A DNA stretch of 64,000 bases from Candidatus Woesebacteria bacterium RIFCSPLOWO2_01_FULL_39_23 (GCA_001793095.1 MGHG01000009.1:90391-154390); one strand, 5' to 3'; positions 14,883 to 61,685 are shown, counted from the stretch's first letter. Numbers and translations: made by a program. Notes: generated from the sequence alone by a model not told the origin.

Positions 14883-15770
14883 TTATGATTTGTTAATTAT
14901 CTGACTTGGCGTAATTACAGTGATATTGTTTTCTTGAACATACTTAATAATGTCCTCAAAGTCATCTTTATTAATGTCGTAACGTTCACTGTTGACATCT
15001 TTAATTGGTTCGCCGACCTTATGGAATAAAAGGATCAACCATGCTTTATCCTTTTTAGTTTGGTCGATCCATAACTTTATATCATCAACCTTTGTATTAT
15101 TTTCGATATTTTTAACCTTCATGTTATAGGGATCTAGTGTATCTACAGGATTAAAACCGGGATCGACAGTACGATATCCTTGAAACAGTTTACTGGCTTC
15201 ACTGCGGAGCGTCGGACTGTCTACCCCACACGGTGTAACAAAGACAGTGGCGGATAATTTTTGACTCCAAAGTATATTCCTGGCGGTAGTTAAATCTGTT
15301 TTTATTTGATCTTCGCTTAATGACTGCATGTTGCAATCATGTTTCAAACTATGATTTGCTATTTCCCAGCCGTCGTCTTGGATAATTCTTAACTGTGCCC
15401 AATTCATGTAATCTTTTTGGCCGATTGCAACAACCGGGACTGCAATGGTTCCCTTTAACCCCGCTTCTTTCATTAATGGATAGGCAACCATGTATTGTGA
15501 CAGCCACGCATCGTCAAACCAAAAGGTTATGTAACCATCGGTATTATTTGGTAACGCGGCATAATCTTTAAAAAAAGGATTAGCAGGATTTGTCGTACTG
15601 TAATTTTGCACACTCCTCCAAATAGGAGTATCGGATACTGAACCGAAAACATAACCAATGACAAGCCAAAGGATTATTAATGGTACTACTAACCAAAACA
15701 GGAAAGAATGTTGGCCGTCTTTCGGGCTACCGATTTTTTGAACTAAATTATTTATTTTCTTGTTTTTCAT
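14883..15770 (-). CDS. Polysaccharide deacetylase (CE4, NodB homology) with N-terminal TM
   Basis: FWFDDAW...NHSLKHD motifs. The ORF-track start at 15869 reads into the intergenic repeat element; the Met at 15770 (MKNKKINN) is preferred. Confidence 0.65.
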   Translation of the reverse strand: MKNKKINNLVQKIGSPKDGQHSFLFWLVVPLIILWLVIGYVFGSVSDTPIWRSVQNYSTTNPANPFFKDYAALPNNTDGYITFWFDDAWLSQYMVAYPLMKEAGLKGTIAVPVVAIGQKDYMNWAQLRIIQDDGWEIANHSLKHDCNMQSLSEDQIKTDLTTARNILWSQKLSATVFVTPCGVDSPTLRSEASKLFQGYRTVDPGFNPVDTLDPYNMKVKNIENNTKVDDIKLWIDQTKKDKAWLILLFHKVGEPIKDVNSERYDINKDDFEDIIKYVQENNITVITPSQIINKS

Positions 15771-15960
15771 GACATCCTCCCTGCTCTTACAAGCAGGGTT
15801 TCCTTCTCTAAAGAAGGATGATACTTCGACAAGCTCAGTATCATGCTGAGTATCGTCGAAGCATGACATATCAGGCTCGATTCTCTACGAGTCAGAGACT
15901 CTTAGAGTCGGCGACATCCCCGAGCTAACGCTCGGAGTTTTCTCGAGATCTGCTATAAAC
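15771..15960 (+). repeat. Modular structured intergenic element, copy A (full length, ~190 nt)
   Basis: It shares a 5' hairpin module, a 45-nt palindromic module, a GCTCGATTC linker and a 3' GC-hairpin + TTTTCT + GCTGTTATAA tail with copies at 17504, 38557 (minus) and 61594. The stems co-vary between copies. Confidence 0.65.
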
Positions 15961-17418
15961 TTTAAAAAAACCTTCTTCATATATTAATTTGTATCTTCCG
16001 TCTATTTCTGTAAGAATTTTCATTGCCAGTTCTTTTTTCGCTTCGTTTTTATTATCTAGCTCTATGTAGTCGAAATACTTATCCCTTATTGCTTGGATAT
16101 AGGCTGTATCATCGCTCATGCCTGAATACTCGATCCAATCCAGAGTGAAGATATTACCCGGGGGATATGTTTTATTATATAAACTTAAAACAACGTCGGC
16201 GCCGGTTTCGGCAAGTACTTTGTCTCCCATTTGCACATTCGTACTTAAGAATTTTTTGAGATTTGCTGTATTTATCCAATCGTGTTCAAGTCGGTAAAGG
16301 TTTTTAGGTAATATAGCTAAGTAAATTATTGCAAGCACTAAAACGGATAATCTTATAACAAAAGCAATAATTTTGTTTTTGCTGTCCATTAGGTAAGCGA
16401 ATGTATAGCCAATAATTGGCGACAAGAAAATAATTGTCAGATAAATATGTTTGTTCAGCGTTGGATAGCGCATGAGAGATATATGAAAAATCGGAATTAT
16501 TAGCGCGAGTGCCAATAAACCCAAGACACTTTTAACTCTCCTGATTAGAAGAAGAATATAGAGCGAAATACAAGACATTATTAAAGTTACATACGAGTTT
16601 TCCCATATCACATGAATAATCGATTGAAGAAAGTCAGAATCTCTGGTTGTTTGGGATGATGCATAAATAAGTATGTCTCTACCAAAAAATAAGGCATAAA
16701 AAAGTATTCCGAGTACAAAGGGGACTAAACCGTACAAATACCATAATTTTTTATGGAAATTATTTCTTTTTCTAATTTCTATAACTGATAAAATGAATAG
16801 AACCGGAAAAAAAAGTGCAGTAACTATCTTCATTAAAAAAGCAGCCAATAAACTGACAGCTGCCAGAAAGTAATATTTTCCATTATTAAAGTAATTAGCT
16901 TTTATAAAAGAGTTGATTGAAAAGAGCATTAAAAAATAAGTTGGTATATCGTAGGTTGCAAGTTTTGAAACAAAAATTCCGACGTAGGAAAATGCAACGA
17001 TGAATGATGCAATTAAAGCCGCAGGAAGGTTGTATTTTTTGCTATTGAAAATATTAAGCATGCGGGTAAAGCGGTAAACTTCTTCTACAAGAAAAACTCC
17101 AAAGAACACGTTCAAAAGTCGGGATCCGATTATGCCTCCAACCTGATATGCCATTGCAGTTAAACTGGGATACAGATAAGGTAAACCCGCCATCCAAAGC
17201 CTGGCACCATAACTCCACCAGTCATTTGCAAATAACCCCATTTTCCCTACAACGACATATATTGCCTCGTCATTAAAAGGTGTATTGTAATTCAAATTAA
17301 TGATGCGGACTATTAAAGCTGGAAATATTATCAGGTAGAACAGAAATTTCTCCTTGTTAACTTTTCTAAAGTATTTGTTTTTAAGTAACTTTATAGTTTT
17401 TAGCATGCACGATATCAA
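15925..17418 (-). CDS. GT-C fold membrane glycosyltransferase (GT39/GT83-like; PMT/ArnT-type)
   Basis: About 12 TM helices and a first-loop DE motif (NTPFNDEAIYVV). The last ~10 codons overlap the repeat element. Confidence 0.55.
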   Translation of the reverse strand: MISCMLKTIKLLKNKYFRKVNKEKFLFYLIIFPALIVRIINLNYNTPFNDEAIYVVVGKMGLFANDWWSYGARLWMAGLPYLYPSLTAMAYQVGGIIGSRLLNVFFGVFLVEEVYRFTRMLNIFNSKKYNLPAALIASFIVAFSYVGIFVSKLATYDIPTYFLMLFSINSFIKANYFNNGKYYFLAAVSLLAAFLMKIVTALFFPVLFILSVIEIRKRNNFHKKLWYLYGLVPFVLGILFYALFFGRDILIYASSQTTRDSDFLQSIIHVIWENSYVTLIMSCISLYILLLIRRVKSVLGLLALALIIPIFHISLMRYPTLNKHIYLTIIFLSPIIGYTFAYLMDSKNKIIAFVIRLSVLVLAIIYLAILPKNLYRLEHDWINTANLKKFLSTNVQMGDKVLAETGADVVLSLYNKTYPPGNIFTLDWIEYSGMSDDTAYIQAIRDKYFDYIELDNKNEAKKELAMKILTEIDGRYKLIYEEGFFKVYSRSRENSER

Positions 17419-17503
17419 TATAGGTCATGTATTATACATTATTAGGGATAATTATAAACATAATATGGGATATTAATTAAATATGTACTAACTTAAATGT
17501 TAT

Positions 17504-17661
17504 GACATCCTCCCCGCCTTGAAAGGCGGGGTTTCCTTCAAAGGAGGATGATACTTCGACAGGCTCAGTATCATGCTGAGTATTATCGAAGCATGACATA
17601 TCAGCGTTCAATTCATCCCCGGGCTGAAAGCCCGGAGTTTTCTTGAATGCTGTTATAAGCC
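17504..17661 (+). repeat. Modular structured intergenic element, copy B
   Basis: Same module order as copy A, with compensatory stem changes (CCCCGCC-TTGAAA-GGCGGGG against CCCTGCT-CTTACA-AGCAGGG). Confidence 0.65.
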
Positions 17662-19773: not shown

Positions 19774-21282
19774 ATGACAAGAAAAATACCGTCAACTATG
19801 ATTTCTCAACACCCAGATCATGCAAGTAAACCTTATTGGCTGGAAGAAGAGTTTATTGGAACTCACAACGAATCTAAAGAGTGTTTTTTATCTTTTTCTG
19901 AGCTGGGTTCCTCTGAATATAAATGGGACTGGGAAGGAAAACTTGTCGATGAGTCAGTTGTAGAAAGGCTATTCATGGATCATTATGACTATTTTCAAAA
20001 ATATCAATTAGGTAAAGAAAAGTTTCTTACATTTCGTTTGCCTAACCCAAGAGTAGAAAGCGAATACAGACTGGGTCGAGCGTTTATGGGTCTACTCAGC
20101 GCTGCCGGTTTAGCTAAAGGAGTGGGTTTACACACACCTCCTTTATTTGAGGCTATACTACCAATGACAGAATCTGCAAAAGAGATAATTGAAATACAAG
20201 AAGCGTTTGCAGAAATATCTTCACTTAAACACCGTTTAAATAGTTCTAAAAACGGTTCATTGAAGCATGTTGAGTTAATACCTCTTTTTGAAAAAGTAGA
20301 CACGATTATAAGATCAGATGAAATTTTGAATGAGTATATTGATATACACAAGAAAAAGTTTGGAAGACAGCCTGATTATATAAGACCTTATATTGCGAGG
20401 TCTGATCCGGCTCTAAATTCAGGATTAATTCCGACAGTATTAGCAATTAAAATGGCTCTCTCCCGCTATAGACGATTCGAATCGGTTAAAAACATTAAGC
20501 TATATCCAATAATCGGTTCTGCTTCGCTACCTTTTCGGGGTGGGCTTACCCCAGAAACAATAGGTAATTTTACAAGGGAATATGGGGGTGTAAGAACGGC
20601 ACTACTGCAAAGTGCTTTTCGATATGACTATGATAAGGACAAAGTAATAAAAGCCATAAAAGAATTGGAGTCTATCCTCCCTTATACAAAAGCGGTAGAG
20701 ATATCAAAAGTTGAGGAAACAAAATTAATGAAAACAATTTCTCTCTTAGAGAAGGATTATAAAGAGACCGTTGAAGAAATAGCTACCATTATTAACGATA
20801 TTGCATCGAAACTACCTAAAAGAAGAGAACGCGTCCAACATATAGGACTATTTGGCTACTCAAGAGGCGTTGGTAGAGTGAAGTTGCCAAGAGCAATTGG
20901 CTTTACTGGTGCTTTATATTCTTTAGGTGTTCCTCCTGAAATTATTGGGACAGGGCGAGGTCTTAAGAAAGCTGAGGAATTAACACTTTTGAAATATATT
21001 GAACAGCATTATCTTAACCTAAAGCAGGATCTTATTAAAGCAGGTTTGTACTTGAATAAGGATAACTTATATAAGTTATCCTGTTCAAACCCAATATGGA
21101 CTGGGGTAATGGAAGATGTAAAGTATATTGAGCAATTTTTGGGTAAAGAACTGGGGCCTCAAAACACAGATCATGTAGAACACTGTAAAATAACTGGTAA
21201 AATATTTAAGTTACTCGTTGCAGGAAAGGATTTCAGCCAGGAATTATCACAGGCGGCGGTATTGCGAAAAAGTATAGGTTAA
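19774..21282 (+). CDS. Phosphoenolpyruvate carboxylase, archaeal type (PepcA)
   Basis: N-terminal ...STMISQHPD, FRLPNP, IELIPLFEKVDT, YPIIGSASLPFRGGL and LLQSAFRYDYD match archaeal-type PEPC signatures. About 500 aa. Confidence 0.8.
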   Translation: MTRKIPSTMISQHPDHASKPYWLEEEFIGTHNESKECFLSFSELGSSEYKWDWEGKLVDESVVERLFMDHYDYFQKYQLGKEKFLTFRLPNPRVESEYRLGRAFMGLLSAAGLAKGVGLHTPPLFEAILPMTESAKEIIEIQEAFAEISSLKHRLNSSKNGSLKHVELIPLFEKVDTIIRSDEILNEYIDIHKKKFGRQPDYIRPYIARSDPALNSGLIPTVLAIKMALSRYRRFESVKNIKLYPIIGSASLPFRGGLTPETIGNFTREYGGVRTALLQSAFRYDYDKDKVIKAIKELESILPYTKAVEISKVEETKLMKTISLLEKDYKETVEEIATIINDIASKLPKRRERVQHIGLFGYSRGVGRVKLPRAIGFTGALYSLGVPPEIIGTGRGLKKAEELTLLKYIEQHYLNLKQDLIKAGLYLNKDNLYKLSCSNPIWTGVMEDVKYIEQFLGKELGPQNTDHVEHCKITGKIFKLLVAGKDFSQELSQAAVLRKSIG

Positions 21283-27750: not shown

Positions 27751-28941
27751 TTAAATAAATCTAACCTGCATGCCGTCAAGAGCCTGTAAGGATAGGGAGA
27801 CTTCTTGGCCGGGGAATTTTGAACCGATAGCCCAGATTTTTGCGTGCGTTCTTTCTTCTGCGAAATCAGGCCCAATTTTTTGTGCAACTTCGAATAAACT
27901 TGCCCCTTTTTTCATAACGATAGGGCTATTAAAATTCGGCTCTTCATCGAGGCGAACAAGATAAACATTGATAAAACCAAGAGTTTCCCAAATCCTTTCT
28001 TTTAAATGGTCTAGTCCGTAATCTTTTACTGCACTTATGTATGATATATCATTACCCGCCTGCAACGCTTGATGCGTCCCGCTCGCATCGCTACGCGAAA
28101 CGTCTCGGGCGAGAGCATCCGCGGGTAGGTATGTAACATTATCATTCGGCTGCATAATAATTTCTTTGTTTAACATGTCCGATTTATTTATAACAGAAAT
28201 TGAGGGGGTGTAAACGCGATTTAGTGATAATGCATCGATTAATCTTTCCAAACTTAAGTTTTCATTGATTGTTATTTCCGCGTTTTTTATTCCAAGTTCA
28301 CTAATAACACTTTTAAAAGTTTCTCTCGTGAGGTCTTGTTTAATATTGGAGTGAATGATAAGTCCTCCAGAAACTTTTTTGTCCACTATTATATTTGGTC
28401 GCACAATATCAAGTCTAATTCCGTTTCTTTCGAGTGCAGCCTTAATTCTTTCAATAGCCTCAGGTCTGTCGATGTCCGTCATTAGAATTATCAGGTCAGC
28501 CCCTCGAGCTACCGACAAAACTTCACGTCCTCTTCCCTTCCCTTCTTCTGCACCCTCAATTAGACCAGGAACATCCAAGATTTGGATTCTGGCATTTTTA
28601 TACTCCATCATGCCCGGAATAACTGATACGGTTGTAAAAGAATAGGGAGCCACTCTGCTTCTTGCGTTTGTAAGTCTATTCAGAAGAGTTGATTTTCCGG
28701 CTGACGGTGGACCTATTAATATTACAGTTGCATCTCCCTGGTGCTTTACTGCATAGCCTTGACCTCCTCCACCTCTTGATTTTGAGGATGTTTCTATTTG
28801 TTTATCTTTCAGCCTTGCAATTCTAGCCCTGAGCCTTCCGATATGGTGCTCGGTACCTTTATGGTAAGGTGTGTCGCGTATTTCTTTTTGAATGGCTGAA
28901 ATTTGTTCACCTATATGATCAATATCGGAAAAATCACTCAT
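27751..28941 (-). CDS. DRG/Obg-family GTPase with C-terminal TGS domain; carries a 33-aa in-frame inserted element
   Basis: G1 GPPSAGKSTLLN, DVPGLIEGA and a C-terminal TGS-like ...QVRFI. The N-terminal helix region resembles eukaryotic/archaeal DRG. The ORF-track start at 28998 overlaps tRNA-Arg(TCG); the Met at 28941 is preferred. Confidence 0.65.
   Translation of the reverse strand: MSDFSDIDHIGEQISAIQKEIRDTPYHKGTEHHIGRLRARIARLKDKQIETSSKSRGGGGQGYAVKHQGDATVILIGPPSAGKSTLLNRLTNARSRVAPYSFTTVSVIPGMMEYKNARIQILDVPGLIEGAEEGKGRGREVLSVARGADLIILMTDIDRPEAIERIKAALERNGIRLDIVRPNIIVDKKVSGGLIIHSNIKQDLTRETFKSVISELGIKNAEITINENLSLERLIDALSLNRVYTPSISVINKSDMLNKEIIMQPNDNVTYLPADALARDVSRSDASGTHQALQAGNDISYISAVKDYGLDHLKERIWETLGFINVYLVRLDEEPNFNSPIVMKKGASLFEVAQKIGPDFAEERTHAKIWAIGSKFPGQEVSLSLQALDGMQVRFI
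28041..28140. mobile_element. In-frame palindromic inserted element, copy 2 (~100 bp, 33 codons) inside the DRG GTPase gene
   Basis: About 94% identical to 6742-6841. It encodes DNVTYLPADALARDVSRSDASGTHQALQAGNDIS between conserved GTPase and TGS segments. Confidence 0.6.
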
Positions 28942-33538: not shown

Positions 33539-33670
33539 GCCAAGCTCCGCTTACAGCGCGTAGCGATGCCAAGCTTTGCTTACAGCGCGTAGCGATGCCA
33601 AGCTTTGCTTACAGCGCGTAGCGATGCCAAGCTTTGCTTACAGCGCGTAGCGATGCCAAGCTCCGCTTAC
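33539..33670. repeat. Tandem minisatellite, 29-bp unit x ~4.5 (GCCAAGCTYYGCTTACAGCGCGTAGCGAT)
   Basis: Directly adjacent repeats with no spacers. It sits between tRNA-Gly(TCC) and a duplicated 20-nt copy of the tRNA 5' end (33668-33687). Confidence 0.8.
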
Positions 33671-33816
33671 CATTGAACCATACCCGCGCGTCGTAACACG
33701 ACGCACTAATCGTATCACAATGCCTTTGCGTAGGATACTAACGCTAGTCGGTTACTCCTTTCAATCCTTCTGCTTTGCTCAGGATTGGTTTCTAACAATC
33801 AAATAATATGTTTTTG

Positions 33817-33980: not shown

Positions 33981-34040
33981 TCGTCGAAAGGAACAAAGAT
34001 AGTATATTTTACTATTGAGACGTGTAAAGAGGCAAATATA

Positions 34041-34910
34041 TTATTTTTTTGTGCCGACGATTATAATTACGTCATAAGAAGAGCTGGAAGCGACTTTAGT
34101 GTCAGATTTGGCCACGGAGTATGTAGACTTAAGTAGTTCTTCGATTTTATCGTATACTTTTGATGGCGTATTTTCTTTGAGCTTAACCTCGGTATCTTCA
34201 TAGTCATAATTGTCAGCATTAGCAGTATCAGTCTTTTTAAATTTAGCTGAAGCTAAAAGATCCTTTACCTTTCCAGCTTCTCCTGGAATACCTGAGCCGT
34301 TAAGTATTTGAATGCTGTAGTCAGAAAATTTAACTTCACCCGATTCGGTGGCTCCCGGAGTTGTAGTAGGGGTAATGGTAATAGTAGGCGTACTTGTGGG
34401 TTCTGTATCTCCTTCGTCCCCCGTCTTTTTAGTCATATTCTTTTGGTAGTAAAGGAAACCGCCAGTGATAATTGCCAAGAGTGATAAAACCAAGAGTATT
34501 ATTAAAAATATTTTGAAAAAACTTTTTCCTTCTTTTTTCTCCGGAGTTTTATTTGTTTCGTCGTAATTTTCTATCCATTTATTCACACTGTCTTTTGAAA
34601 AGTCAGTCGACATGATATCTTTTTCAGGAACACTTCCGGTATCAGCTTGGGCTATTGTTGGAACCTTTGATTTTGCAGATGCATCCTCTGCCGGTTTATC
34701 TGAATCAATGAGACCAAAAGATGTCACCTTTGGAGCGTCCTCTGCAGCAGGCTCGGCTTTTAAATCAGGAACGAAACTCTTTTTTGGGGGGTCTGCCGGA
34801 TCCGGATCGTCATTTTTGGCTAGTTCCGCCGATTTCAGAGTATCCCCTGTTTTTACGGTAATGACTTCCTCCTCCTCGTTGTCGCTTGTCTTTTTACTAT
34901 CGGCAGCCAT
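34041..34910 (-). CDS. Hypothetical membrane protein with acidic low-complexity N-terminal region
   Basis: 289 aa with a single central TM helix and Pro/Thr-rich linkers. Confidence 0.35.
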   Translation of the reverse strand: MAADSKKTSDNEEEEVITVKTGDTLKSAELAKNDDPDPADPPKKSFVPDLKAEPAAEDAPKVTSFGLIDSDKPAEDASAKSKVPTIAQADTGSVPEKDIMSTDFSKDSVNKWIENYDETNKTPEKKEGKSFFKIFLIILLVLSLLAIITGGFLYYQKNMTKKTGDEGDTEPTSTPTITITPTTTPGATESGEVKFSDYSIQILNGSGIPGEAGKVKDLLASAKFKKTDTANADNYDYEDTEVKLKENTPSKVYDKIEELLKSTYSVAKSDTKVASSSSYDVIIIVGTKK

Positions 34911-34939
34911 ATATTAAACTAATATACATTTTTATGCAT

Positions 34940-34969
34940 AAAAGAATCTTTGTCAACACCCTATCAAAT
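34940..34969 (+). promoter_or_regulatory. Sigma70-like promoter for tRNA-His (TTGTCA-N18-TAAAAT)
   Basis: Hexamers read directly from the sequence about 20 bp upstream of the tRNA 5' end. Confidence 0.4.
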
Positions 34970-34990
34970 TTGGTAAAATACGATATACCT

Positions 34991-35064
34991 GGTGGGCATA
35001 GCTCAACGGTTAGAGCGCTTCCCTGTGGAGGAAGAGGTTGCGCGTTCGAATCGCGTTGCCTACC
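34991..35064 (+). tRNA. tRNA-His (anticodon GTG) with genomically encoded G-1
   Basis: G-1 followed by GTGGGCA...TGCCTAC acceptor, C73 discriminator, CTGTGGA anticodon loop. Confidence 0.85.
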
Positions 35065-35137
35065 CCCGAGTCAAACTCGGTTCCCCCGAATTTGAGGAGG
35101 TGTCGCGTTTGACGCGACCAATCAAATATATAGTTAA

Positions 35138-35425
35138 ATGAAGGAAACGTCTGACGTTTCCAAAATGAGATTTTATGTTTATATACCCTACTCCTTAAGA
35201 GATAATGGATTTTATATTAGTCTTACTTATAATTTAAAACGAAGACTTCTTGAACACTCGCATAGAATGGTGGACGCAACAAAAACTGGGGTTCCTTTAA
35301 AGCTTATCCATTACGAATATTTTATTAATCTGGAAGATGCGAAAGCACGAGAAAGATTTTTAAAAAGCGGTTATGGTCGTAAACAGCTTAAGGAAATTTT
35401 AAAAAGAACACTTCAAAAAATATAA
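35138..35425 (+). CDS. Stand-alone GIY-YIG nuclease family protein
   Basis: FYVYI..S..DNGFYISLTYNLKRRLLEH is the GIY-YIG signature. It lies 74 bp downstream of tRNA-His. Confidence 0.55.
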   Translation: MKETSDVSKMRFYVYIPYSLRDNGFYISLTYNLKRRLLEHSHRMVDATKTGVPLKLIHYEYFINLEDAKARERFLKSGYGRKQLKEILKRTLQKI

Positions 35426-35479
35426 GTCTTTCGAACTGTCCTATCGGCCACCCAACAGGAGAAAAGTGTCGGTTTATAA

Positions 35480-35686
35480 TTATTCATCACCTAGTCTGTT
35501 AATTATCTCGTCGTAAGGATTTTTTGCTTTTCTAGTATCATCATCGGAGTATTTGACTCGAACACCTTCAGGTAAATTTACAGCATCCCAGGTCAACATA
35601 GGTCTTTTGCCTTTTGCTCGAGCTTTATCAAACCTTTCTGCCGCTTCAAACAAATCTTTTGTTGGTGCTTGCGGAACATCTTTCAT
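35480..35686 (-). CDS. Hypothetical small protein
   Basis: 68 aa ORF in the AT-rich islet. Confidence 0.25.
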   Translation of the reverse strand: MKDVPQAPTKDLFEAAERFDKARAKGKRPMLTWDAVNLPEGVRVKYSDDDTRKAKNPYDEIINRLGDE

Positions 35687-35796
35687 AGAGTTAGTTTTAT
35701 TGTCATACCCGTTTTATTCTTCAATATCTCTAGGTATGTAAATTTACTTTTAGTATATTCCTCAAAATATATTTTTTCGTATCTTCTTAAGTAATA

Positions 35797-36060
35797 TTAT
35801 GATAAGGAATGCATTCCATTCGGATGAATTTTTTCTAGAGCTTCAATTTGATCACTATGCTTTGATTGTCTTTCTGATACTATGTCCATAGACCCTTCGA
35901 GATTGTCAAGTTTTTTTAGTATTTTTACGGTTTGTTCATAAAAGTCATCTTTAGTAGGAAGGTATTTTAGGTCGTCTTTTCTAACAAGTGTTTCGTCTTC
36001 GCTAATTGTTACTTTTATTAAATCCTTTATATTGTTTAGATCTTTATTTGTAAGACTCAT
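35797..36060 (-). CDS. Small coiled-coil protein (paralog of 37104-37313)
   Basis: Shared TxxDLxxIxxxI...TKDDF...LxKLDxI pattern with the plus-strand ORF at 37104. Confidence 0.35.
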   Translation of the reverse strand: MSLTNKDLNNIKDLIKVTISEDETLVRKDDLKYLPTKDDFYEQTVKILKKLDNLEGSMDIVSERQSKHSDQIEALEKIHPNGMHSLS

Positions 36061-36233
36061 GTTTTAATTTATGACATTTTATCTTTTTCGTCAATGATTA
36101 GTTCGGAATAATTTGATATTCAAAAGTTATAAAATCGTCCCCCACCAGAGGCGGGTGGGCACCACGCACCCCGATAAAATTAAACTTCTAACATTTGTGT
36201 ATACCCTTGATGTAGAGATATAATACCCCAAAT

Positions 36234-36536
36234 ATGCTAGAACGTACGCGTATTCCTCAACCCAAGGAACCAATTAAGAGAGTGAAAGGATTACCAGAAG
36301 ATAGACAGTGTTTAAAATTTCCAGGGTATCTGTGTAATTGTGTAATGTCGGATACCGATTTAAGAAAAAAAATACTTAGAGAACTTAGACAGGAATTAGG
36401 TGTTTATTCATTTATAAATTTGCTTGATACGGGTGTTGCAGAAATGTATGAAGATAGAAGAAAAAAACTATGCGAAGGTGAACCCCCAAAACTTATACAG
36501 AGAATTAAAAACTTTTTAACTATACGAATTGTTTAG
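36234..36536 (+). CDS. Hypothetical protein
   Basis: 100 aa ORF in the islet. Confidence 0.25.
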   Translation: MLERTRIPQPKEPIKRVKGLPEDRQCLKFPGYLCNCVMSDTDLRKKILRELRQELGVYSFINLLDTGVAEMYEDRRKKLCEGEPPKLIQRIKNFLTIRIV

Positions 36537-36715
36537 GAATAATTTGTAAATTTATTAGTTTCCCAATATCTTCAAAAGAAATAACAAATTCAACTTCTCT
36601 GGTTCTAAATAAGTCTGTTAAGCGACCTCAATCTATTTAATTTATAGTAAATCAATTGGAAAAATAGAGTTTCTGTGATATGATGTAGTCTAAAATTAGA
36701 ACTCGAAGAGAAAGA

Positions 36716-36922
36716 ATGGAAGAGATATCGGGAGATGCTGTTAGTAAACTAACTAATGACCCTGATGTTAAGGCTGACGCAATAAACTTATTTATGAGTT
36801 ATGTAGGTGTAAGAAGTTATCAACATGCTGTGGAAATTGCAATAGAAAGAAAAAATGTAGCTACTGGTGGAACACCTACTTTGCATAAACAATTATTCCC
36901 AGGATTAGATATACCCCGTTAA
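36716..36922 (+). CDS. Hypothetical small protein
   Basis: 68 aa ORF. Confidence 0.2.
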   Translation: MEEISGDAVSKLTNDPDVKADAINLFMSYVGVRSYQHAVEIAIERKNVATGGTPTLHKQLFPGLDIPR

Positions 36923-37103
36923 ATTATTAGAATTTTCTGAAAGAAGTTAAGCCCTTAATATCTCCTATTCTTTCGAATCTGCGGCTAAATTAGTTCGAAC
37001 GTCGATTAATGGACGACTAAAGGTTTCTATCTTTAAACAACAAGACTAGTTATGTCATTTTAACATTCTTGACTTTGTTTAAATAAAACGCTTTAATCTA
37101 ACC

Positions 37104-37313
37104 ATGGCAATAACTCAAAGAGATTTAGACGAAATTGAAAATAGATTAAGTGAAACGTTTGTTACAAAAGATGACTTCACTGAATATAAAAGTGAATTAT
37201 TTAATAAATTAGATGAGATTGTAAAGAATACTTCAGATACTAACCGAGAAGTTGAATTAATTGAAAATAGAGTAACTAATATTGAAACGAAACTTCAGGT
37301 TACAGCAGAATAG
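37104..37313 (+). CDS. Small coiled-coil protein (paralog of 35797-36060, opposite strand)
   Basis: A paralogous pair in inverted orientation. Confidence 0.35.
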   Translation: MAITQRDLDEIENRLSETFVTKDDFTEYKSELFNKLDEIVKNTSDTNREVELIENRVTNIETKLQVTAE

Positions 37314-37452
37314 AAAGTTTTAAAATCGTAGTTCGGTTTTACTCACCATTGTAATCCCCCCTCGATTCCTTTGACTGAGCACAAGATCAAGATTCGTTCA
37401 GCATATTTGGCGTGGGGGTAAGTTACCAGGCAGTAGGTTAAGTCTTTTGAGC

Positions 37453-37776
37453 TTAGTTTTTACGAACGATGATTCTTTTCCAGTCAGAGAAGGATAACCC
37501 TTGGAGAATTCCACCCACTAAATAACCTTTTGCAAAAATATTATCGAGAAAATTGATGTTGAAAGTTAAAGTAATAACCAGAACAATAGTAAAATAAAGC
37601 CAATGGTGCAGGTGCAGTGTTTTGTTTTTAAAATGTATGTGAATTTCCGGGCTGAATTGAAAAAACTTTATTTTCATGAGCGGAAGTTTTTTATTAATAA
37701 TGTCTCCTTCCTTTGATATCAATTTGCTTAGAATATACCCCAGCATCAGTGCAAATATGAAGATAATAATATTCAT
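37453..37776 (-). CDS. Small membrane protein (3 TM)
   Basis: 107 aa hydrophobic ORF. Confidence 0.3.
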   Translation of the reverse strand: MNIIIFIFALMLGYILSKLISKEGDIINKKLPLMKIKFFQFSPEIHIHFKNKTLHLHHWLYFTIVLVITLTFNINFLDNIFAKGYLVGGILQGLSFSDWKRIIVRKN

Positions 37777-38168
37777 TAGATGTGTTTAATAGTACCATAT
37801 AATAAAAAGATTTAATTAATATATTCGCTAATTAATAAAATTTCAATTCATACTTTCAATATCATGAAAGTTGCAATAATATTTCCTCACGTATTAAATA
37901 AGCAAGATATCAATTAAAATAAGCATGTATTGCTCTATTGTTATATAGCAATAGAGCAATGTAACTTAACAAATTTGAATTAGCTGAATGCTTTAAAGTT
38001 TTACTTTAGTGAGTTTTGTGGGGTCTTTGTAGAATGTTACTGTCCTAATTTCATTACAATATTGTCGTCTAATCTTTCGGCGAGGCTTCCGAAAATACCG
38101 GGACTTTTTCTTAAAACAATGGCGGTATTTCCCAAATTAAAATAAGAATGTATTTTATCTTTATCTCC

Positions 38169-38381
38169 TTATGAACTGTAAAGTATATTTGTTATCAAGC
38201 CGTTGGAACACTGATTTACTATTGCTTCATCTTGCATACTTGACAGTACATCTTTAGCATCTTCCTGGTCAATTCGACTATCAGCTGCTGCATTTCTAAT
38301 TTGCAAAACTTTTTTGGGTCCTGTGCAAATGCTGTTTTCATTCATAAAACAACGTTTATTACAATATTCCTTATCTGACAT
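38169..38381 (-). CDS. Hypothetical Cys-containing small protein
   Basis: 70 aa. Copy D of the structured element lies just upstream, co-oriented. Confidence 0.25.
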   Translation of the reverse strand: MSDKEYCNKRCFMNENSICTGPKKVLQIRNAAADSRIDQEDAKDVLSSMQDEAIVNQCSNGLITNILYSS

Positions 38382-38556
38382 AATGCTATATTGCTACACC
38401 TATAGAAGAAGTTCAAGTAGTTTAATTATTGACTCGGTAGGTTAAGTAAACGGTGATGAAAAGGTGCATTATTAAAAAAATTAGAGCGGGAGATCTTCTG
38501 ACAAGCTCCTTCTTTACTACTCTTTTATCAAAATAATCCATTAACTTTAGTGCTGA

Positions 38557-38667
38557 GGTTATAACAGCGTTCAAGAAAACTCCGCTCTTCAGGGCGGAGA
38601 TGAATTGAACTCTGATATATCGTCCTCCTTAGAGAAACCCCGCCCTTGAGGGCGGGGAGGACGTCAT
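38557..38667 (-). repeat. Modular structured intergenic element, copy D (minus orientation, lacks the central palindromic module)
   Basis: The reverse complement reads GACGTCCTCCCCGCCCTCAAGGGCGGGGTTTCTCTAAGGAGGACG ATATATCAG AGTTCAATTCATCTCCGCCCTGAAGAGCGGAGTTTCTTGAACGCTGTTATAACC. This aligns module-by-module with copy B. Confidence 0.6.
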
Positions 38668-38993
38668 TTAGAATCCTGCCAGAGACAATACATCGCAACA
38701 ACCCATATTCTCTCCTCAGGATGGCTCCAAGAACCATTTCCTCCTTCTACAAAATATTTATAAGTGCCGCCTTCTTTATCTCTTTTAATTTTCATCAATC
38801 GGCCTCCCCGATCAATTCCTTGAACCGTCTCTGCTCCCCTTACAAAACGCCTTCTTAAGGCCTGTGACGCACGCTCATAGGCGTTCATATCGTCCATTAG
38901 CCTCTTTGCGGTTTTATCTAAACTATCAGCGCTGGTGATGTCTAGTGAGTTTAAATAATTCGAGGTTTTAGGAAATGTTTTATGTAAATCCAT
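38664..38993 (-). CDS. Hypothetical protein
   Basis: 109 aa ORF. Confidence 0.3.
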   Translation of the reverse strand: MDLHKTFPKTSNYLNSLDITSADSLDKTAKRLMDDMNAYERASQALRRRFVRGAETVQGIDRGGRLMKIKRDKEGGTYKYFVEGGNGSWSHPEERIWVVAMYCLWQDSK

Positions 38994-39008
38994 ATTCAGG
39001 CGATTATA

Positions 39009-40328
39009 TCACTTTCTTTCAAGATTATACCAGTTTGGATGATATAAAAAGATTGCCGGTGCATCTTCCAAGAGGTATTTTTGAAAGTCCAAATATATTC
39101 GTTTTCTTTCTTCGAAATTTTCTTGTGTACGGCCATCTTCCAGAAGTTTGTCAATTCGTGGATTTTTATATTTTGTAATGTTCGTATCGATTTGTGTTGA
39201 ATGCCAAAGAGTGTATTGATCTGGGTCGGTTGGTATATCGAAAATAGTAAGATAAGCCTGATAGTCGGTGGGAATAACCGAACTGACTAAGGCTTGGCCG
39301 TCAACCCCGACATCCTTCCAGTCTTTAACAATTTTTTCTGCGATGCCGATTAACGATGGAGTGCTCACGAGCTTAACATTTAGTTTGCTTCTTACTTCTT
39401 TTGGGAGAGCGGTGATGATTTCTCTTGAACGAGCTGGGTCATAGTCGTAGAGTTTCACCTGGGGATTGAAAGCAAACGAATTTGGGTCAATAGGACTTAT
39501 TGCACGCTCAGATGAAAGAATGTCTTTATTGATAGCGTAACTTAAAGCTTGTCTTATGTTTTTTTCCGAAAGTACTGGGTCTTGAGTATTGAAAAATATT
39601 ACTACGGCTTCATGTTTATTTACGATATTTGTGACTTTAGAGTTAATCCATTTGTCAAAAGGTTGCGGATTTAAAACGTTAACCATTTTGTTTATCTCAC
39701 CCATTTTATATGCGAACTTAACTTGATCTTCGGATGGATAGAATTTATATATAATTTTGGATTTACCTTTTATTAATATAATTTTTTGTATATATTCCCC
39801 CGTAACCGTAATTTTATCTACTTTCCACGATCCCGTACCCAATAAACCCTTTTTAAAAACAGGACGCGAAACGACTGATGGAAATGCAATGTAGGGCTCT
39901 TTCAAGTTAAAAATTATAGTGTCCGAGGAGGGATATGTAACATTGACTTCAGAAAAATTATATTTAATGTCTTGACTTTGTAAGGGTTTGCCATCGTGCC
40001 AATAGACGCTTTCATTTAATTTAAATTTCCATGTTTTACCCTTATCATCAGTTCCCCACGATATCGCAAGTCCCGGCTGAGGAATGCCTTTATCATCTAT
40101 TTTAGTTAACCCCAATCCTATCGTGTTTAAGATGTCATCTGGAAGCGTATTTACATGAAATCTGCCTGTAATACCGATAACCTCGGTTTTTGTACTTATT
40201 ACAAGTGGGGAAATAAAGATATATAAAAATAGAATGATAATTCCAGCGAAGGAGCTTAACAAAATTATACCCTTATACCTACTTAAAAACGCCAATAATA
40301 ATCTTAAATAGTAACGAAGTATATGCAT
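39009..40328 (-). CDS. ABC-transporter solute-binding protein, family 5 (peptide/nickel type), short form
   Basis: N-terminal TM/signal, then ...ISWGTDDKGKTWKFKLNESVYWHDGKPL... typical of SBP_bac_5. Confidence 0.5.
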   Translation of the reverse strand: MHILRYYLRLLLAFLSRYKGIILLSSFAGIIILFLYIFISPLVISTKTEVIGITGRFHVNTLPDDILNTIGLGLTKIDDKGIPQPGLAISWGTDDKGKTWKFKLNESVYWHDGKPLQSQDIKYNFSEVNVTYPSSDTIIFNLKEPYIAFPSVVSRPVFKKGLLGTGSWKVDKITVTGEYIQKIILIKGKSKIIYKFYPSEDQVKFAYKMGEINKMVNVLNPQPFDKWINSKVTNIVNKHEAVVIFFNTQDPVLSEKNIRQALSYAINKDILSSERAISPIDPNSFAFNPQVKLYDYDPARSREIITALPKEVRSKLNVKLVSTPSLIGIAEKIVKDWKDVGVDGQALVSSVIPTDYQAYLTIFDIPTDPDQYTLWHSTQIDTNITKYKNPRIDKLLEDGRTQENFEERKRIYLDFQKYLLEDAPAIFLYHPNWYNLERK

Positions 40329-40350
40329 TTAAATAAAGGCTTATTAATAT

Positions 40351-40563
40351 TTAAAGGGTTGTTTGCAGGATTGAAATGATTATAAATAAGCCTACAGTAA
40401 TAAATGTAAATTTGAATAAGGCTTTTTCTAATCCCCGCCTTGAAAATGAAACGCTGCTTCCTCCCCAAACCCGACCTAATCCTGTACCTTTGTTTTGAAT
40501 TAAAATAAAAATTATTAAAAGAATAGAAATTATTATTTGTATTGCAATAATTATGTTTTGCAT
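40351..40563 (-). CDS. secG: Preprotein translocase subunit SecG
   Basis: 70 aa with two TM helices and a central glycine-rich loop (KGTGLGRVWGGSS). Confidence 0.6.
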   Translation of the reverse strand: MQNIIIAIQIIISILLIIFILIQNKGTGLGRVWGGSSVSFSRRGLEKALFKFTFITVGLFIIISILQTTL

Positions 40564-41038: not shown

Positions 41039-42364
41039 TTAATTTTGTAATAAAGCTTTCGATAATAATAAATGGTGATATCTTCGTGCGAAACGGTGAG
41101 CTTCGTTTCTAATTCTTTGGACGAGATATTTTGCCGGCGGAGATGCTTTTATCAGCTGGAATCTGTATTTATCGAAAGATTTTATCGGTATAACGAGCAT
41201 TTCTTCTCTTTTGGCGATACCGAAAACAGGTATGGCGTACTCAGAAAAAATGGTGTTCATCGCAGACGCTTGAGATTTTCCTCCATCGACCAACACTAAA
41301 TCAGGCTTACCCCACTTTTTAAAATATTTCAGTCTTCTACCGGCAACTTCACTTAAAGAACTAATGTCGTTATCACCACGGTTTCGTCTTATTTTAAAGT
41401 GCCTGTATAGTTTTTTTTCCGGAACCCCCCCAATAAAAGTAACCATTGAAGCCGCAGGGTAGGAGGAAGCAAGGTGTGCAACATCGTAACATTCAATTCG
41501 ATTAATTTTATCGACTTTAATGTAATTATGTAATATCCGATGTAAATGCTCTAATTCGAAGTTAATAATATCTTCCGCAAAGTTAGGGTTTTTTATAAAT
41601 TCATCGATTTGATTTATCGGCTGGGTAAGGTAATCCAATCTTTTTATTTTTTCTCTGACCCGTATGGCATTCTCATAATCGTTTAAAGTAGAATACTCGT
41701 CCATTTCGGATTTTAGATCTTTTATAACTCTTGAAAATTTACCCGATAAAATAGTTTTTACAGATTTGATATTAGTCAAATATAACCTTTTCTGAAATAA
41801 TATTTCTTCACCATTTTCCAAATTTTCTATATCATTTGGACACGGATTACAAAGTTTTATTTGCTTATACAGGCATGCTTTATGTCCTATTGTATGTTGA
41901 GAAAAAGGAAATATTTTTCTCAACATTTTAAGTGTGGAATAAATTGCGGTGGAGTTAGGAAACGGTCCGAAGAGTGCGAGAGACGGTAGTGTATCGTTTT
42001 TTCGAACGGTTAATATTCTCGGGTATTTTTCTTTCGTAATTTTTATATAAAGAGGGTGTTTGTCGTCTTTGAGGGCTGAGTTGTAAAAAGGGTCCAATTT
42101 TCTTACCATTTTTGCTTCTAATAAAAGTGACTCAAGTTCACTCATGACTTGTATTATGGATAGATGGTCTGCTTTGGATATCATTTCTTTTGTTTTAGGT
42201 AATAGTTTATTTCCGTAGTATGATCGGAGTCTGGCTTTGAGGTTTTTTGCTTTGCCAACATATAAAGCAACATGTTTTTTATCTGAAAATATATATATTC
42301 CGGGACCTTCCGGGAGGGTAGAAAGATTAATTTCAGATAAATTAATATTAATGAATCCTCGCAT
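41039..42364 (-). CDS. uvrC: Excinuclease ABC subunit C, short form lacking the C-terminal (HhH)2
   Basis: GIY-YIG (GIYIFSDKKHVALYVGKAKNLKARL), Cys-rich CLYKQIKLCNPC and RNase-H-like DLVLVDGGKSQ. 441 aa. Its stop overlaps the start of the upstream operon gene. Confidence 0.7.
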   Translation of the reverse strand: MRGFININLSEINLSTLPEGPGIYIFSDKKHVALYVGKAKNLKARLRSYYGNKLLPKTKEMISKADHLSIIQVMSELESLLLEAKMVRKLDPFYNSALKDDKHPLYIKITKEKYPRILTVRKNDTLPSLALFGPFPNSTAIYSTLKMLRKIFPFSQHTIGHKACLYKQIKLCNPCPNDIENLENGEEILFQKRLYLTNIKSVKTILSGKFSRVIKDLKSEMDEYSTLNDYENAIRVREKIKRLDYLTQPINQIDEFIKNPNFAEDIINFELEHLHRILHNYIKVDKINRIECYDVAHLASSYPAASMVTFIGGVPEKKLYRHFKIRRNRGDNDISSLSEVAGRRLKYFKKWGKPDLVLVDGGKSQASAMNTIFSEYAIPVFGIAKREEMLVIPIKSFDKYRFQLIKASPPAKYLVQRIRNEAHRFARRYHHLLLSKALLQN

Positions 42365-59835: not shown

Positions 59836-60339
59836 CTAACTGGGACCTTTCCTACTCTGAAATACATGTGTCAGGGCTACCGCCAATGCATCGGCAGCAT
59901 TATCAAAATGGGTTTTCTTGTGTGCTTTACTTTTAATATTATTACCTAATATTTTTCTTATAGATCTTTGAACATCTTTCTTATTGGCTCGACCACTACC
60001 GGTTATCATCTTTTTAATTGTTCCGGGTGCGTATTCAACTACTTCTACTTTTGTCTTTGAAGCTGCCAATAAAAGTACACCTTGTGCCTGGCCAACTGCA
60101 ATGGCTGTTTTTGCGTTTGTAGCAAAGAAGATTTTCTCAAACGCAAAGACATGTGGATTATAACTTTTTATAATAGCTAATATTTCTTTATAAATTATTT
60201 CCAGTCGGTTTTCTTTGAAGCCGTTTTTATCAGTTTCTATTAACCCCCAATTAATTACTTTAAAGTCGCCTTTGCCGTTCGTTTCAATTACTCCGTATCC
60301 TGTAGTAGCAGTACCGGGGTCGATACCTAAAATTATCAT
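59836..60339 (-). CDS. ruvC: Holliday junction resolvase RuvC
   Basis: MIILGIDPGTATTGYGVIE... catalytic-Asp N-terminus. 167 aa. Confidence 0.85.
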   Translation of the reverse strand: MIILGIDPGTATTGYGVIETNGKGDFKVINWGLIETDKNGFKENRLEIIYKEILAIIKSYNPHVFAFEKIFFATNAKTAIAVGQAQGVLLLAASKTKVEVVEYAPGTIKKMITGSGRANKKDVQRSIRKILGNNIKSKAHKKTHFDNAADALAVALTHVFQSRKGPS

Positions 60340-60656
60340 TAATCAATTATACCCTTTTTTGTTTTCTTTAGGGATGTCTTAGATTCTTCAAGATTTAAAT
60401 TTTTCTGAAAGAACTTAAGGTATACCAATTCAAAAATACCCAAAGTATTTAACAAAAGCAAAATAATAAACCAATATCTCTGGTTATTTCTGGAAGCTTT
60501 CCAAAGTGTATAACCTTTAATAAATAAAGACCAGGCAACAAGCAGTAAAGCAAAAAATTTATTATTAACGGGCAAGTAACTAAAGTTCTGTAAAAACTGA
60601 GACATGATTACATGAAGTACTTCACTTTTAAGTTGGTACGTTTTTCTTCGATCCAA
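60339..60656 (-). CDS. Small membrane protein (3 TM)
   Basis: 105 aa. Its stop overlaps the ruvC start. Confidence 0.35.
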   Translation of the reverse strand: MDRRKTYQLKSEVLHVIMSQFLQNFSYLPVNNKFFALLLVAWSLFIKGYTLWKASRNNQRYWFIILLLLNTLGIFELVYLKFFQKNLNLEESKTSLKKTKKGIID

Positions 60657-61294
60657 CTCCTGTATAAATCGGATAATTTCTCCTGAAATATCTGAGCTTT
60701 TAGCGATTCTTTTACGTCATCATATTTAGTTTCAGGAGAGTATGAACTTTTATTATCGTCAAACCGTTGTTGAATTTCTTCATCAGAGATACTTATTTTA
60801 TGCTGAAGTAATTTTTCCAATATTTTTTGAATTTCTATATTTTCTCTGAGTTCTTCAAGAGTCATGCCTTGTAGTGCAAGAACGTCGTTAAGGTTGCTTC
60901 CCTGTTGATTAATGCTTTCGGAAATTTTTGCCAACTCACTAGTTATTTCGTCTCGAGATATTTTAATATTATTGTTTTTGGCTTCCTGAAAAATAATTTC
61001 TTTTGTAATAATATCTTCAAGAACTTTGCCTTTATCTTTTTTTTCTAGTTCACTGTAAAGTTGGTGTCTGGCTATCAATCTACCGTTCACTGACGCGATG
61101 AAGTATCTTCTGAATAGTGCGTTTAAAACAATAACAAGAAGTATTGCAACAGATGCAAGAATTATTATTCGATTACTTTTAATTTGAGGAAATAAAGCGT
61201 TTTTATTGTTGTTACTTTTTTTGGCCAAAGACTTTTTAGTACCAGCAGAACTTACTTGTTTTTTATTTTTGGATTTAATTGCTTTTTTTGCCAT
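60608..61294 (-). CDS. SurA-N-terminal-domain-like periplasmic chaperone (no PPIase domain)
   Basis: TM anchor followed by a SurA_N-like helical region. The start is placed at MAKKAIKS (61294) rather than the ORF-track 61360. Confidence 0.35.
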   Translation of the reverse strand: MAKKAIKSKNKKQVSSAGTKKSLAKKSNNNKNALFPQIKSNRIIILASVAILLVIVLNALFRRYFIASVNGRLIARHQLYSELEKKDKGKVLEDIITKEIIFQEAKNNNIKISRDEITSELAKISESINQQGSNLNDVLALQGMTLEELRENIEIQKILEKLLQHKISISDEEIQQRFDDNKSSYSPETKYDDVKESLKAQIFQEKLSDLYRSWIEEKRTNLKVKYFM

Positions 61295-61331
61295 GCGCAA
61301 ATAGTAACACAAAAAAATATAAATTACACAG

Positions 61332-61550: not shown

Positions 61551-61593
61551 TTCTTAATAATAATAGTTTAATAGACTATTGACAAGAAGATAT

Positions 61594-61685
61594 GACATAC
61601 TCGCCTCGCCGTGGCTTGAGCGAAGCGGGTCAGGGCTCGATTCATCCCCGAGCGTAAGCTCGGGGTTTTCTCGAAACTGCTATAC
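61594..61685 (+). repeat. Modular structured intergenic element, copy C (short form)
   Basis: Shares TATGACAT 5' context, a 5' hairpin (CGCCTCGCC...GCGAAGCGG), the GCTCGATTCATCC linker and the CCCGAGC-GTAA-GCTCGGG TTTTCTCGAAA CTGCTATAC tail. It ends 8 nt before the ATG of the next gene. Confidence 0.6.

Follow-up and report, generated by a model that had tools for sequence, protein, structure and literature searches.

A candidate repeat-punctuated gene slot beside tRNA-His in Woesebacteria

We analysed a 64,000-nt stretch of DNA (hereafter the window) from Candidatus Woesebacteria bacterium RIFCSPLOWO2_01_FULL_39_23 (GCA_001793095.1 MGHG01000009.1:90391-154390), focusing on an islet at 35066-38560 that directly follows the tRNA-His gene (GTG; 34991-35067, plus strand; found by ARAGORN, 65 bits in Rfam). 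A sequence-only reading had suggested that this islet is a decayed integrative element or a hypervariable region. Comparison with related loci indicates that it is the local version of a lineage-wide hypervariable slot anchored on tRNA-His, with a small gene, cc69, as its conserved resident, and that copies of a 27-nt direct repeat lie between its genes. All positions are counted from the first letter of the window.

Composition and gene content of the islet

The islet differed from its surroundings in composition and coding content. Its GC content was 32.3%, compared with 36.6% for the whole window, and fell within the lowest 1.4% of 3.5-kb windows, with one stretch (60151-63650) lower still. 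Coding density was 58%, against at least 86% in the rest of the window, and the median open reading frame (ORF) was 78 aa (range 68-107 aa) rather than the 289 aa found elsewhere. Three stretches (36540-36715, 36925-37100, and 37780-38168) contained no ORF of 35 aa or more, and nothing credible in them matched an Rfam family. These values agree with the earlier description of an AT-rich, gene-poor islet with ORF-free stretches. Positions 34000-40400 were 100% identical to 322-kb contigs of RIFCSPLOWO2_01_FULL_39_23 and sibling bins (MGGL01000004.1, MGFV01000010.1, and one ENA assembly). All population copies of this genome were 99.9-100% identical, so dN/dS within the population could not be computed. 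Two short GC hairpins directly 3' of the tRNA (35066-35118, plus strand; fold of -21.9 kcal/mol, z=-2.9) are a possible terminator of the tRNA transcript.

We scored coding potential with a frame-aware Markov model trained on the long genes of the window and compared the scores with off-frame sequence. It had been noted in advance that a lack of coding signal in most of the small ORFs would speak against the islet as described; instead, the scores of all eight exceeded the 95th percentile for off-frame sequence. GIY-YIG, 68a, cc87, 68b, and cc69 gave a strong signal, and p100, tm107, and p70 a marginal one.

The ORF nearest the tRNA encodes a GIY-YIG protein of the UPF0213/YhbQ type (35138-35425, plus strand; coding score 0.045), with 95 aa, or 86 aa from an alternative start at 35165. 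Residues 12-81 matched Pfam PF01541 above its cut-off (29.5 bits against 22.6, E=9e-7), in support of the earlier claim of a stand-alone GIY-YIG protein directly after the tRNA. The protein also aligned weakly to the UPF0213 protein BH0048 (PDB 1zg2, E=0.48); in this weak match, the YVYI, FY(IS), RR, and E elements were in register, with the glycine of YIG changed to serine. Like UPF0213/YhbQ-type proteins (COG2827), it consists of a catalytic domain of ~90 aa only, appears to show the conserved Tyr...Tyr...Arg...Glu pattern, and exceeds the Pfam cut-off; unlike them, it has YIS for YIG, a divergent Arg-Glu segment, and weak similarity to the PDB structure. We rejected an I-TevI-type homing endonuclease, since the 95 aa hold the catalytic domain only, lacking the DNA-binding domain and intron context of such enzymes, and Rfam detected no intron.

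The remaining accessory ORFs were mostly without detected relatives. Neither 68a (68 aa; 35480-35686, minus strand; coding score 0.058) nor p100 (100 aa; 36234-36536, plus strand; a weak 0.011) had a detected homologue, and the 90%-identity cluster of 68a had members from the RIFCSPLOWO2_01_FULL_39_23 population only. The gene 68b (68 aa; 36716-36922, plus strand; coding score 0.069), preceded by a promoter-like site (TTGGAA-N17-(TG)TATGAT, 36656-36684), forms a single-gene unit between two copies of the repeat, M1 and M2. Beyond cc69, tm107 encodes a 107-aa predicted membrane protein (37453-37776, minus strand; promoter-like site at 37846-37818). It is called as a gene by NCBI and missing from the ENA gene calls; its 42% identity to an ORF at the related locus L033 (E=6e-33) shows it to be a real gene. 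The 70-aa Cys-rich ORF p70 (38169-38381, minus strand) gave the weakest signal (-0.016), and p109 has homologues in relatives.

Apart from GIY-YIG, the islet ORFs had no credible match in Pfam, PHROGs, NCBIfam, or PADLOC, and the PADLOC defence-system models had no match in the islet. GIY-YIG, 68a, p100, 68b, and p70 were absent from every related locus recovered, and tblastx against all of these loci found no pseudogene remnants besides cc87, the repeat, cc69, and tm107. The ORFan status of 68a, p100, 68b, and p70 is provisional, being based on family libraries and the related loci.

Coiled-coil genes cc87 and cc69

Two genes of the islet belong to families that recur in other genomes. The first, cc87 (35797-36060, minus strand), encodes an 87-aa coiled-coil protein with conserved LPTKDEFY...H.D.IEALEKIHP motifs, and its family comprised 14 clusters with identities of 45-100%. 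In L009, the homologue is adjacent to SBP; in L024, it is divergent from the cc69 homologue, repeating the divergent cc87/cc69 pair of the window. The second, cc69 (37104-37313, plus strand), encodes a 69-aa acidic protein for which the structure model (pLDDT 72.8) predicts helices at residues 5-18 and 22-67, a plain two-helix protein.

The two proteins were similar by BLASTP (E=1e-4 over 54 columns, 15 of them gapped) and by comparison of cc69 with the cc87-family profile (91% probability, E=1e-6), and no DNA-level inverted repeat was found between the genes. They therefore appear to be old, distantly related paralogues. As a recent event, the inverted duplication proposed earlier is not supported.

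Conservation of cc69 was high across relatives. The family included 79 clusters at 66-100% identity, with homologues of 67-69 aa, and a search of 1.84 billion proteins gave only 69 representatives at E<=1e-3. In comparisons of the window with 12 homologues, pN was 0.07-0.15 and pS 0.64-0.95, giving dN/dS of at most 0.09. Between the same genomes, SBP, UvrC, GTPase, and CTP synthase shared 46-57% identity, compared with 66-93% for cc69, which thus seems more conserved than CTP synthase or UvrC. The sequence-only reading had held that conserved genes under purifying selection would mark a core region instead. This is what we found for cc69, and cc87, tm107, and p109 also have homologues; the rest of the islet varies.

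The gene also appears to carry its own promoter. A TTGACT box (37069-37074), a 17-nt spacer, and a TTTAAT box (37092-37097) together span 37069-37097 on the plus strand and end 6 nt before the ATG, and TTGACT-N17-TTTAAT ends 3-9 nt before the ATG in 13 of 14 cc69 homologues. Because the promoter boxes end so near the ATG, cc69 is probably transcribed from its own promoter as a leaderless mRNA. We also observed versions of cc69 truncated to ~44-54 aa at 80-91% identity (L032, L033 8001-8132, L034, and clusters P0087-P0093), some of them in many contigs, which represent either a shorter isoform or recurrent truncation.

Variation of the slot among related genomes

Related loci were recovered through cc87 and cc69 homologues, and where one side of the frame was absent, the DNA around cc69 was compared. 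The frame consists of tRNA-His on one side and a conserved SBP-SecG-holin-UvrC block on the other; in distant genomes, the order UvrC-holin-SecG-SBP is kept, and the content differs directly beyond SBP. The slot held different genes at every related locus recovered, with cc69 as the recurring gene, so the suggestion of a hypervariable region beside the tRNA is supported by the comparison across relatives. Content inside the frame varied at L017, L013, L024, L025, L027, L033, L009, and L046, and tRNA-His was found 47-2016 nt upstream of the cc69 homologue in L013, L017, L024, L025, and L027.

The gene order at individual loci was as follows. L017 has a tRNA cluster ending in tRNA-His, then NTP_transf_2, cc67, ORFs of 183 and 81 aa, SET, SBP, holin, and UvrC, and L013 has tRNA-His, a 116-aa ORF, cc67, a 245-aa ORF, a dehydrogenase, P4_cII, Beta_protein, an M78 peptidase, and HigB. 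At L024, tRNA-His is followed by two ORFs, cc86 (minus strand), cc67 (plus strand), and CTP synthase; at L027, cc67 follows tRNA-His after 47 nt. L009 contains SBP, cc79, a type IIG restriction enzyme, and an OLD nuclease, and L046 has ~13 kb of small ORFs around cc69, up to SBP. Defence or addiction genes were thus seen in the slot at L009 14462-19822 (a type IIG N6-methylase/Eco57I enzyme and an OLD-family nuclease) and at L013 8116-11223 (HigB toxin, M78 peptidase, Beta_protein, and P4_cII).

We note two observations on the tRNA side of the frame. The tRNA genes Leu-Leu-Val-Phe-Gly-Arg-Gly-His form one compact same-strand cluster in relatives (L013 2921-5472, L017 4257-4966); in the window, these tRNA genes are spread across 27 kb (8105-35067) on the opposite strand with protein genes between them, tRNA-His alone being on the plus strand. 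In one population contig (L040 12600-13803; ENA ERZ27254844 k141_2062901), the sequence is 99.97% identical to the window from the islet on and switches inside tRNA-His (34991). The D-arm of that tRNA-His has two substitutions and one indel, and upstream lies an unrelated RnfD/NqrB-like gene. Either the strain is rearranged, with the breakpoint inside tRNA-His, or the contig is an assembly chimera.

A 27-nt direct repeat at gene boundaries

The starting clue to the repeat was a 55-nt match between window positions 36585-36640 and two sites flanking cc79 in L009, after which the flanks of cc69 homologues were aligned. The information profile gave the 27-nt consensus AGTTC[T/G]AAC-N9-TA[G/A]-N3-ACCC. 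A hidden Markov model (HMM) of this repeat identified 33 copies at E<0.01 in 12 loci, within 260 kb of non-redundant DNA. Strand was uniform within each locus and equal to that of tRNA-His or cc69 wherever either was present. Copies were spaced 113-1812 nt apart (median 640), and all lay at gene boundaries, irrespective of the orientation of the neighbouring genes. As a prospective test, we retrieved L046 once the model had been fixed; it contained seven copies (E<=7.5e-6), all on the cc69 strand and all intergenic.

Two clear copies sit in the first two ORF-free stretches of the islet, both on the plus strand: M1 (36588-36631; core GGTTCTAAATAAGTCTGTTAAGCGACC; nhmmer E=2e-4 to 1e-3) and M2 (36980-37023; core AGTTCGAACGTCGATTAATGGACGAC; nhmmer E=1.2e-4). 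The HMM found no copy outside the islet in the 64-kb window. M1 shared ~80% identity with two copies that lie on either side of the cc87 homologue in L009. The position of M2, upstream of cc69, is taken by a motif copy in relatives and by the tRNA-His 3' end in L027. A third, diverged copy, M0 (35426-35453, plus strand; GTCTTTCGAAC..TGTCCTATCGGCCACCC), starts 1 nt after the GIY-YIG stop and aligns to copies in L025 and L027 with an identical GGCCACCCAA end. A relaxed two-block pattern matched twice in the window, M0 included, both times on the plus strand and in the islet, with 0.53 matches expected per 64 kb. A fourth, degenerate copy, M3 (37330-37365, plus strand; AGTTCGGTTTTACTCACC...), is doubtful; it is nhmmer-negative and is proposed on position only, as relatives carry a motif copy 19-32 nt after the cc69 stop.

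Two further observations concern motif-like sequence. At L025 9106-9378, three motif copies recur in tandem every 114 nt without an intervening ORF, and both spacers contain a 7-bp hairpin (CGGAAAT...ATTTCCG); the arrangement may represent empty cassettes or a small repeat unit. In the AT-rich divergent intergenic region between cc87 and p100, a GC-rich hairpin (CCCCCACC-AGAGGC-GGGTGGGCA, 36139-36175) has a second arm equal to the first 8 nt of tRNA-His (GGTGGGCA), with a motif-like AGTTCGGAA 40 nt upstream. It may be a disrupted motif or a tRNA-end remnant.

We considered and rejected several identities for the repeat. As a coding remnant (G-x-L-[PV]-x-x-V-R-T on the reverse strand), it would be expected to show 3-nt periodicity, which its conservation lacks; stops lie directly upstream in at least five copies, and the start codon is inconsistent. 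Nor did we find evidence for an RNA hairpin or attC-like site, since RNAalifold predicted zero pairs across 21 instances with their flanks. This lack of conserved pairing excludes both the attC architecture (PMC4889954) and an intrinsic terminator. A decaying scar was rejected because the motif is kept although neutral sites are saturated between the genomes. With synonymous sites of cc69 saturated (pS 0.64-0.95), conservation of an intergenic 27-mer implies selection or continual renewal, and suggests that the repeat is maintained rather than decaying.

The folding result also bears on the idea that the repeat acts at the level of RNA: by mimicking a tRNA 3' end, it would punctuate transcripts from the tRNA operon as a signal for processing, stability, or termination. 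Copies share the strand of the tRNA cluster, lie 1-100 nt after the stops of plus-strand genes, and contain T-loop-like and ACCC-like sequence, as such a signal might. However, conserved pairing was missing in the 21 instances, the acceptor-like helix has no partner strand, and repeat orientation does not track minus-strand genes. In addition, the cc69 promoter is downstream of the copy, which places the copy outside the cc69 mRNA. We therefore consider an RNA-level signal improbable.

Homology breakpoints and the tRNA-His 3' end

The repeat motif is similar to the 3' end of tRNA-His (T-loop GTTCGAA ... CCTACCCC), and diverged copies share with it a T-loop-like GTTCGAA and the His-specific CCACCC end. 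Breakpoints between sister loci fall at the same sequences. Homology between L013 and L017 comprises exactly motif-cc67-motif (5910-6261 vs 5912-6258, 87%), and the genes to either side are unrelated. Relative to L027, L025 carries one extra gene in a 713-nt insertion placed precisely at the 3' terminus of tRNA-His; on its right, the insertion closes with a motif copy whose ...CCAACCC aligns with ...CCCACCCC of the tRNA, and the flank beyond is homologous. Finally, a 20-nt flank, T[TC]AGATAT[AG]GTTTGATA[TC]AC, follows the tRNA-His 3' end in L013, the motif copy after cc67 in L021, and a weak copy in L013. Where one sister locus has the tRNA-His 3' end, another has a repeat copy, and homology blocks between genomes stop at it.

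The distribution and the breakpoints together bear on whether the islet is simply an ordinary, poorly conserved AT-rich stretch, with a few real genes (GIY-YIG, cc87, cc69, and tm107), otherwise spurious ORFs, and a repeat that is a functionless lineage-specific leftover. The weak coding scores of p100, p70, and tm107, the five ORFs with no family match, and the identical population copies, which give no direct sign of mobility, would all fit such a stretch. It would not account for 33 co-oriented copies confined to the slot at 12 loci, the result of the prospective test at L046, or the coincidence of breakpoints with the motif, and we give this explanation little credence.

The main rival to a recombination site is a regulatory DNA site, such as an operator, insulator, or nucleoid-protein site, located before the promoter of every accessory gene, with the slot varying by ordinary indels and homologous recombination. 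Copies lie 55-120 nt upstream of the next plus-strand start and are followed by promoter-like boxes, the core GTTCGAAC is an 8-bp palindrome, the motif is conserved despite saturation of neutral sites, and no recombinase was found. At the same time, the motif stands 12 to 55 nt from the cc69 -35 box, a variable distance more consistent with a junction than with the phased site of a regulator or activator. Copies also flank minus-strand genes without a change of orientation, and L025 has three tandem copies 114 nt apart with no gene between. The ends of homology blocks at the motif, and its positional replacement by the tRNA 3' end in two comparisons, are likewise hard to reconcile with regulation, and we regard a purely regulatory role as unlikely.

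Searches for mobile elements

Similarity to known mobile elements was not found. By tblastn, the nine small proteins had no match in INPHARED or PLSDB, and IMG/VR held no true match for the cc69 and cc87 profiles, the repeat, or the palindrome at 37929-37960; two IMG/VR matches to an 18-mer were set aside as chance, lying inside unrelated phage genes. No integrase or integrase remnant was present among the islet ORFs, the gene next to the tRNA being the 95-aa GIY-YIG, and a degraded integrase further downstream was likewise not found. The check for att-like repeats of the tRNA-His 3' end gave a mixed outcome: diverged copies are present, and no copy with three or fewer mismatches occurs in the window.

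These searches weigh on the other half of the original suggestion, that a classical tRNA-targeted integrative element or prophage lost its integrase and left the islet behind, with the repeats as decaying att scars. Its position adjoining the tRNA 3' end, its lower GC, low gene density, and ORFans, and the tRNA-strand direct repeats with a T-loop-like GTTCGAA and His-like CCACCC end are all as expected for such a remnant. Against this stand the lack of any integrase, phage, or plasmid gene or remnant, of homologues in viral contigs, and of a close copy of the tRNA end in the window. Moreover, the repeats are more alike across distant genomes than to their own tRNA and are kept under saturation, and units of 0.1-1.8 kb are far smaller than integrative elements. 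A decayed integrative element is accordingly a poor candidate.

A possible tRNA-anchored array of mini-cassettes

Weighing these observations, we put at roughly 50% the probability that the slot is a tRNA-His-anchored array of mini-cassettes, whose units use the tRNA-His end or an existing repeat as their docking point. The repeat would be the recombination site of mobile cassettes of 0.1-1.8 kb, which would insert at the tRNA-His 3' end or at a repeat already in place. A recombinase encoded elsewhere would excise or shuffle them, in analogy to integron attC/attI with a different kind of site. The window would then read, in order, as tRNA-His, GIY-YIG (cassette 1), M0, 68a with cc87 and p100, M1, 68b, M2, and cc69, followed by the SBP-side genes tm107, p70, and p109. 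GIY-YIG and the ORFans would be cargo, and cc69 a constrained resident with its own promoter.

Several observations weigh against the cassette array. No recombinase was detected in the window or the fetched loci (by a tyrosine-recombinase regex heuristic and by Pfam labels, which lacked Phage_integrase), and, with population copies 99.9-100% identical, no strain was seen both with a cassette and lacking it. In contrast to integron cassettes, most units seem to be equipped with promoters of their own. The similarity of the motif to tRNA-His is modest, with tRNA-His 3' ends not consistently outscoring other tRNAs in local alignment, and the motif is ~5 nt longer than the corresponding tRNA segment. 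Motif copies also occur where no tRNA lies within 10 kb of cc69 (L046) or within ~6 kb (L015), and cc69 loci L022, L028, L029, and L031 have no recognisable motif. Finally, M0 was missed by nhmmer, and its identification depends on the relaxed pattern and alignment rather than the HMM.

A more specific version is that Woesebacteria have an undescribed integron-like capture system, with promoter-bearing cassettes of 0.1-1.8 kb, an unstructured 27-nt site that mimics tRNA-His from T-loop to 3' end, the tRNA-His gene as the primary docking site, and a recombinase acting in trans. We offer this version as a tentative possibility that is probably not correct in full.

The palindrome and other sequence elements

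The perfect 12-bp inverted repeat with an 8-nt spacer that had been reported in the third ORF-free stretch is real, and is in fact larger: a 32-bp palindrome (37929-37960) with 16-nt arms, one mismatch, and no spacer. It is separated by 209 nt from the p70 stop before it and by 153 nt from the tm107 start after it, and folds at -18.7 and -19.6 kcal/mol (z of -4.1 and -3.4). Four perfect palindromes with arms of at least 12 nt occur in the window where 0.03 are expected, an over-representation of ~100-fold. The three others (3044-3075, 21059-21082, and 41894-41926) have arms of 12-13 nt, and two of them lie inside long ORFs (19774-21282 and UvrC). We observed that a 20-nt direct repeat, 19/20 identical (AATTAAAATAAG[C/A]ATGTATT, 37912-37931 and 38135-38154), brackets the palindrome together with 200 nt of ORF-free DNA.

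A role of the palindrome as operator or origin was not supported. The scan of the 64-kb window found no second copy of the palindrome or its half-site, and the palindrome was absent from viral contigs. It has no counterpart beside the tm107 homologue in L033, the closest locus with the same neighbouring gene, and it lies ~80 nt upstream of the nearest promoter-like site, which is the best one for tm107. An intrinsic terminator was rejected: the stem is AU-rich, the U-run on the minus strand starts 8 nt after it, and the terminator scan did not list it.

The islet ends, as described before, at copy D of a multi-copy GC-hairpin element (38556-38667, minus strand), which forms two terminator-like hairpins directly after the p109 stop. 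The other sites are 15746-15961, 17479-17660, and 61643-61674, all on the plus strand. In the element, two or three GC-rich hairpins precede GTTTTCT[TC]GAA.GCTG[TC]TATAA, and the hairpins show paired changes between copies (CCCCGAGC/GCTCGGAG, CCCCGGGC/GCCCGGAG, and CTCCGCCC/GAGCGGAG). Its match to Rfam HgcC was weak (28.5 bits, below the cut-off of 50).

Elsewhere in the window, a 100-nt direct repeat, 94% identical and GC-rich relative to the genome, occurs at 6742-6841 and 28041-28140. At 33539-33683, beside tRNA-Gly(TCC), a 29-nt tandem repeat (GCCAAGCTTTGCTTACAGCGCGTAGCGAT) has about five units, the last of which merges into sequence resembling the end of a tRNA-Leu gene; unit number or sequence differs among population contigs.

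Relation to known systems and significance

The slot shares features with three known kinds of architecture. Integron cassette arrays with no integrase nearby (CALIN elements; Cury et al. 2016, PMC4889954) are defined by two or more same-strand recombination sites that bound cassettes and lie within 4 kb. They lack IntI by definition; a complete integron needs IntI, with attI and Pc adjacent. M0, M1, and M2 and the 33 copies show this spacing and strand arrangement, for the present repeat rather than for bona fide attC sites. Like integrons and CALIN elements, the slot has short, mostly single-gene units, many ORFans, site copies on one strand less than 4 kb apart, no integrase nearby, and cassette order and content that vary between relatives. 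In contrast, attC sites are imperfect inverted repeats (R''-L''/L'-R') that fold, whereas this site of ~27 nt has no hairpin or inverted partner. The attC cores are GTTRRRY/RYYYAAC; in AGTTC[T/G]AAC, TCTAAC partly fits YYYAAC, and there is no GTTRRRY partner. The units also appear to have their own promoters, and in several genomes the array starts at a tRNA rather than at attI/intI. A limited literature search found no reports of integrons for Patescibacteria.

Similarly, tRNA-targeted islands, which can accrete in tandem at a tRNA 3' end, resemble the slot in lying directly 3' of a tRNA, in atypical composition, in presence or absence among relatives, in tRNA-strand direct repeats, which here have a modest resemblance to the T-loop-to-3'-end segment, and in clean insertion at the tRNA end (one case, L025 vs L027). 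Unlike them, the slot has no tRNA-proximal integrase, its units are 10-100 times smaller, and its repeats match the tRNA end inexactly and form a motif in their own right, conserved across species. Xer/dif-bounded modules share a short (~28 nt) conserved site bounding exchangeable modules, with the recombinase encoded elsewhere. Site orientation alternates in pdif modules; here, all copies are direct, the motif is not dif-like, and its halves are not clear inverted repeats.

The slot should not be filed as an integron/CALIN element or a classical island, as it has neither the attC hairpin and core boxes nor an island integrase. What is new here is the repeat-punctuated architecture, related to tRNA-anchored islands and to integron/CALIN-like arrays. 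If the repeat is merely regulatory, the finding shrinks to an ordinary variable region. Patescibacteria (candidate phyla radiation, CPR) have tiny genomes in which gene gain and loss are little understood, and the slot, if the proposal is true, would offer a concrete mechanism for such flux. As the type IIG enzyme, OLD nuclease, HigB, and nucleotidyltransferase in relatives suggest, accessory, defence, and host-interaction genes could then be sought there.

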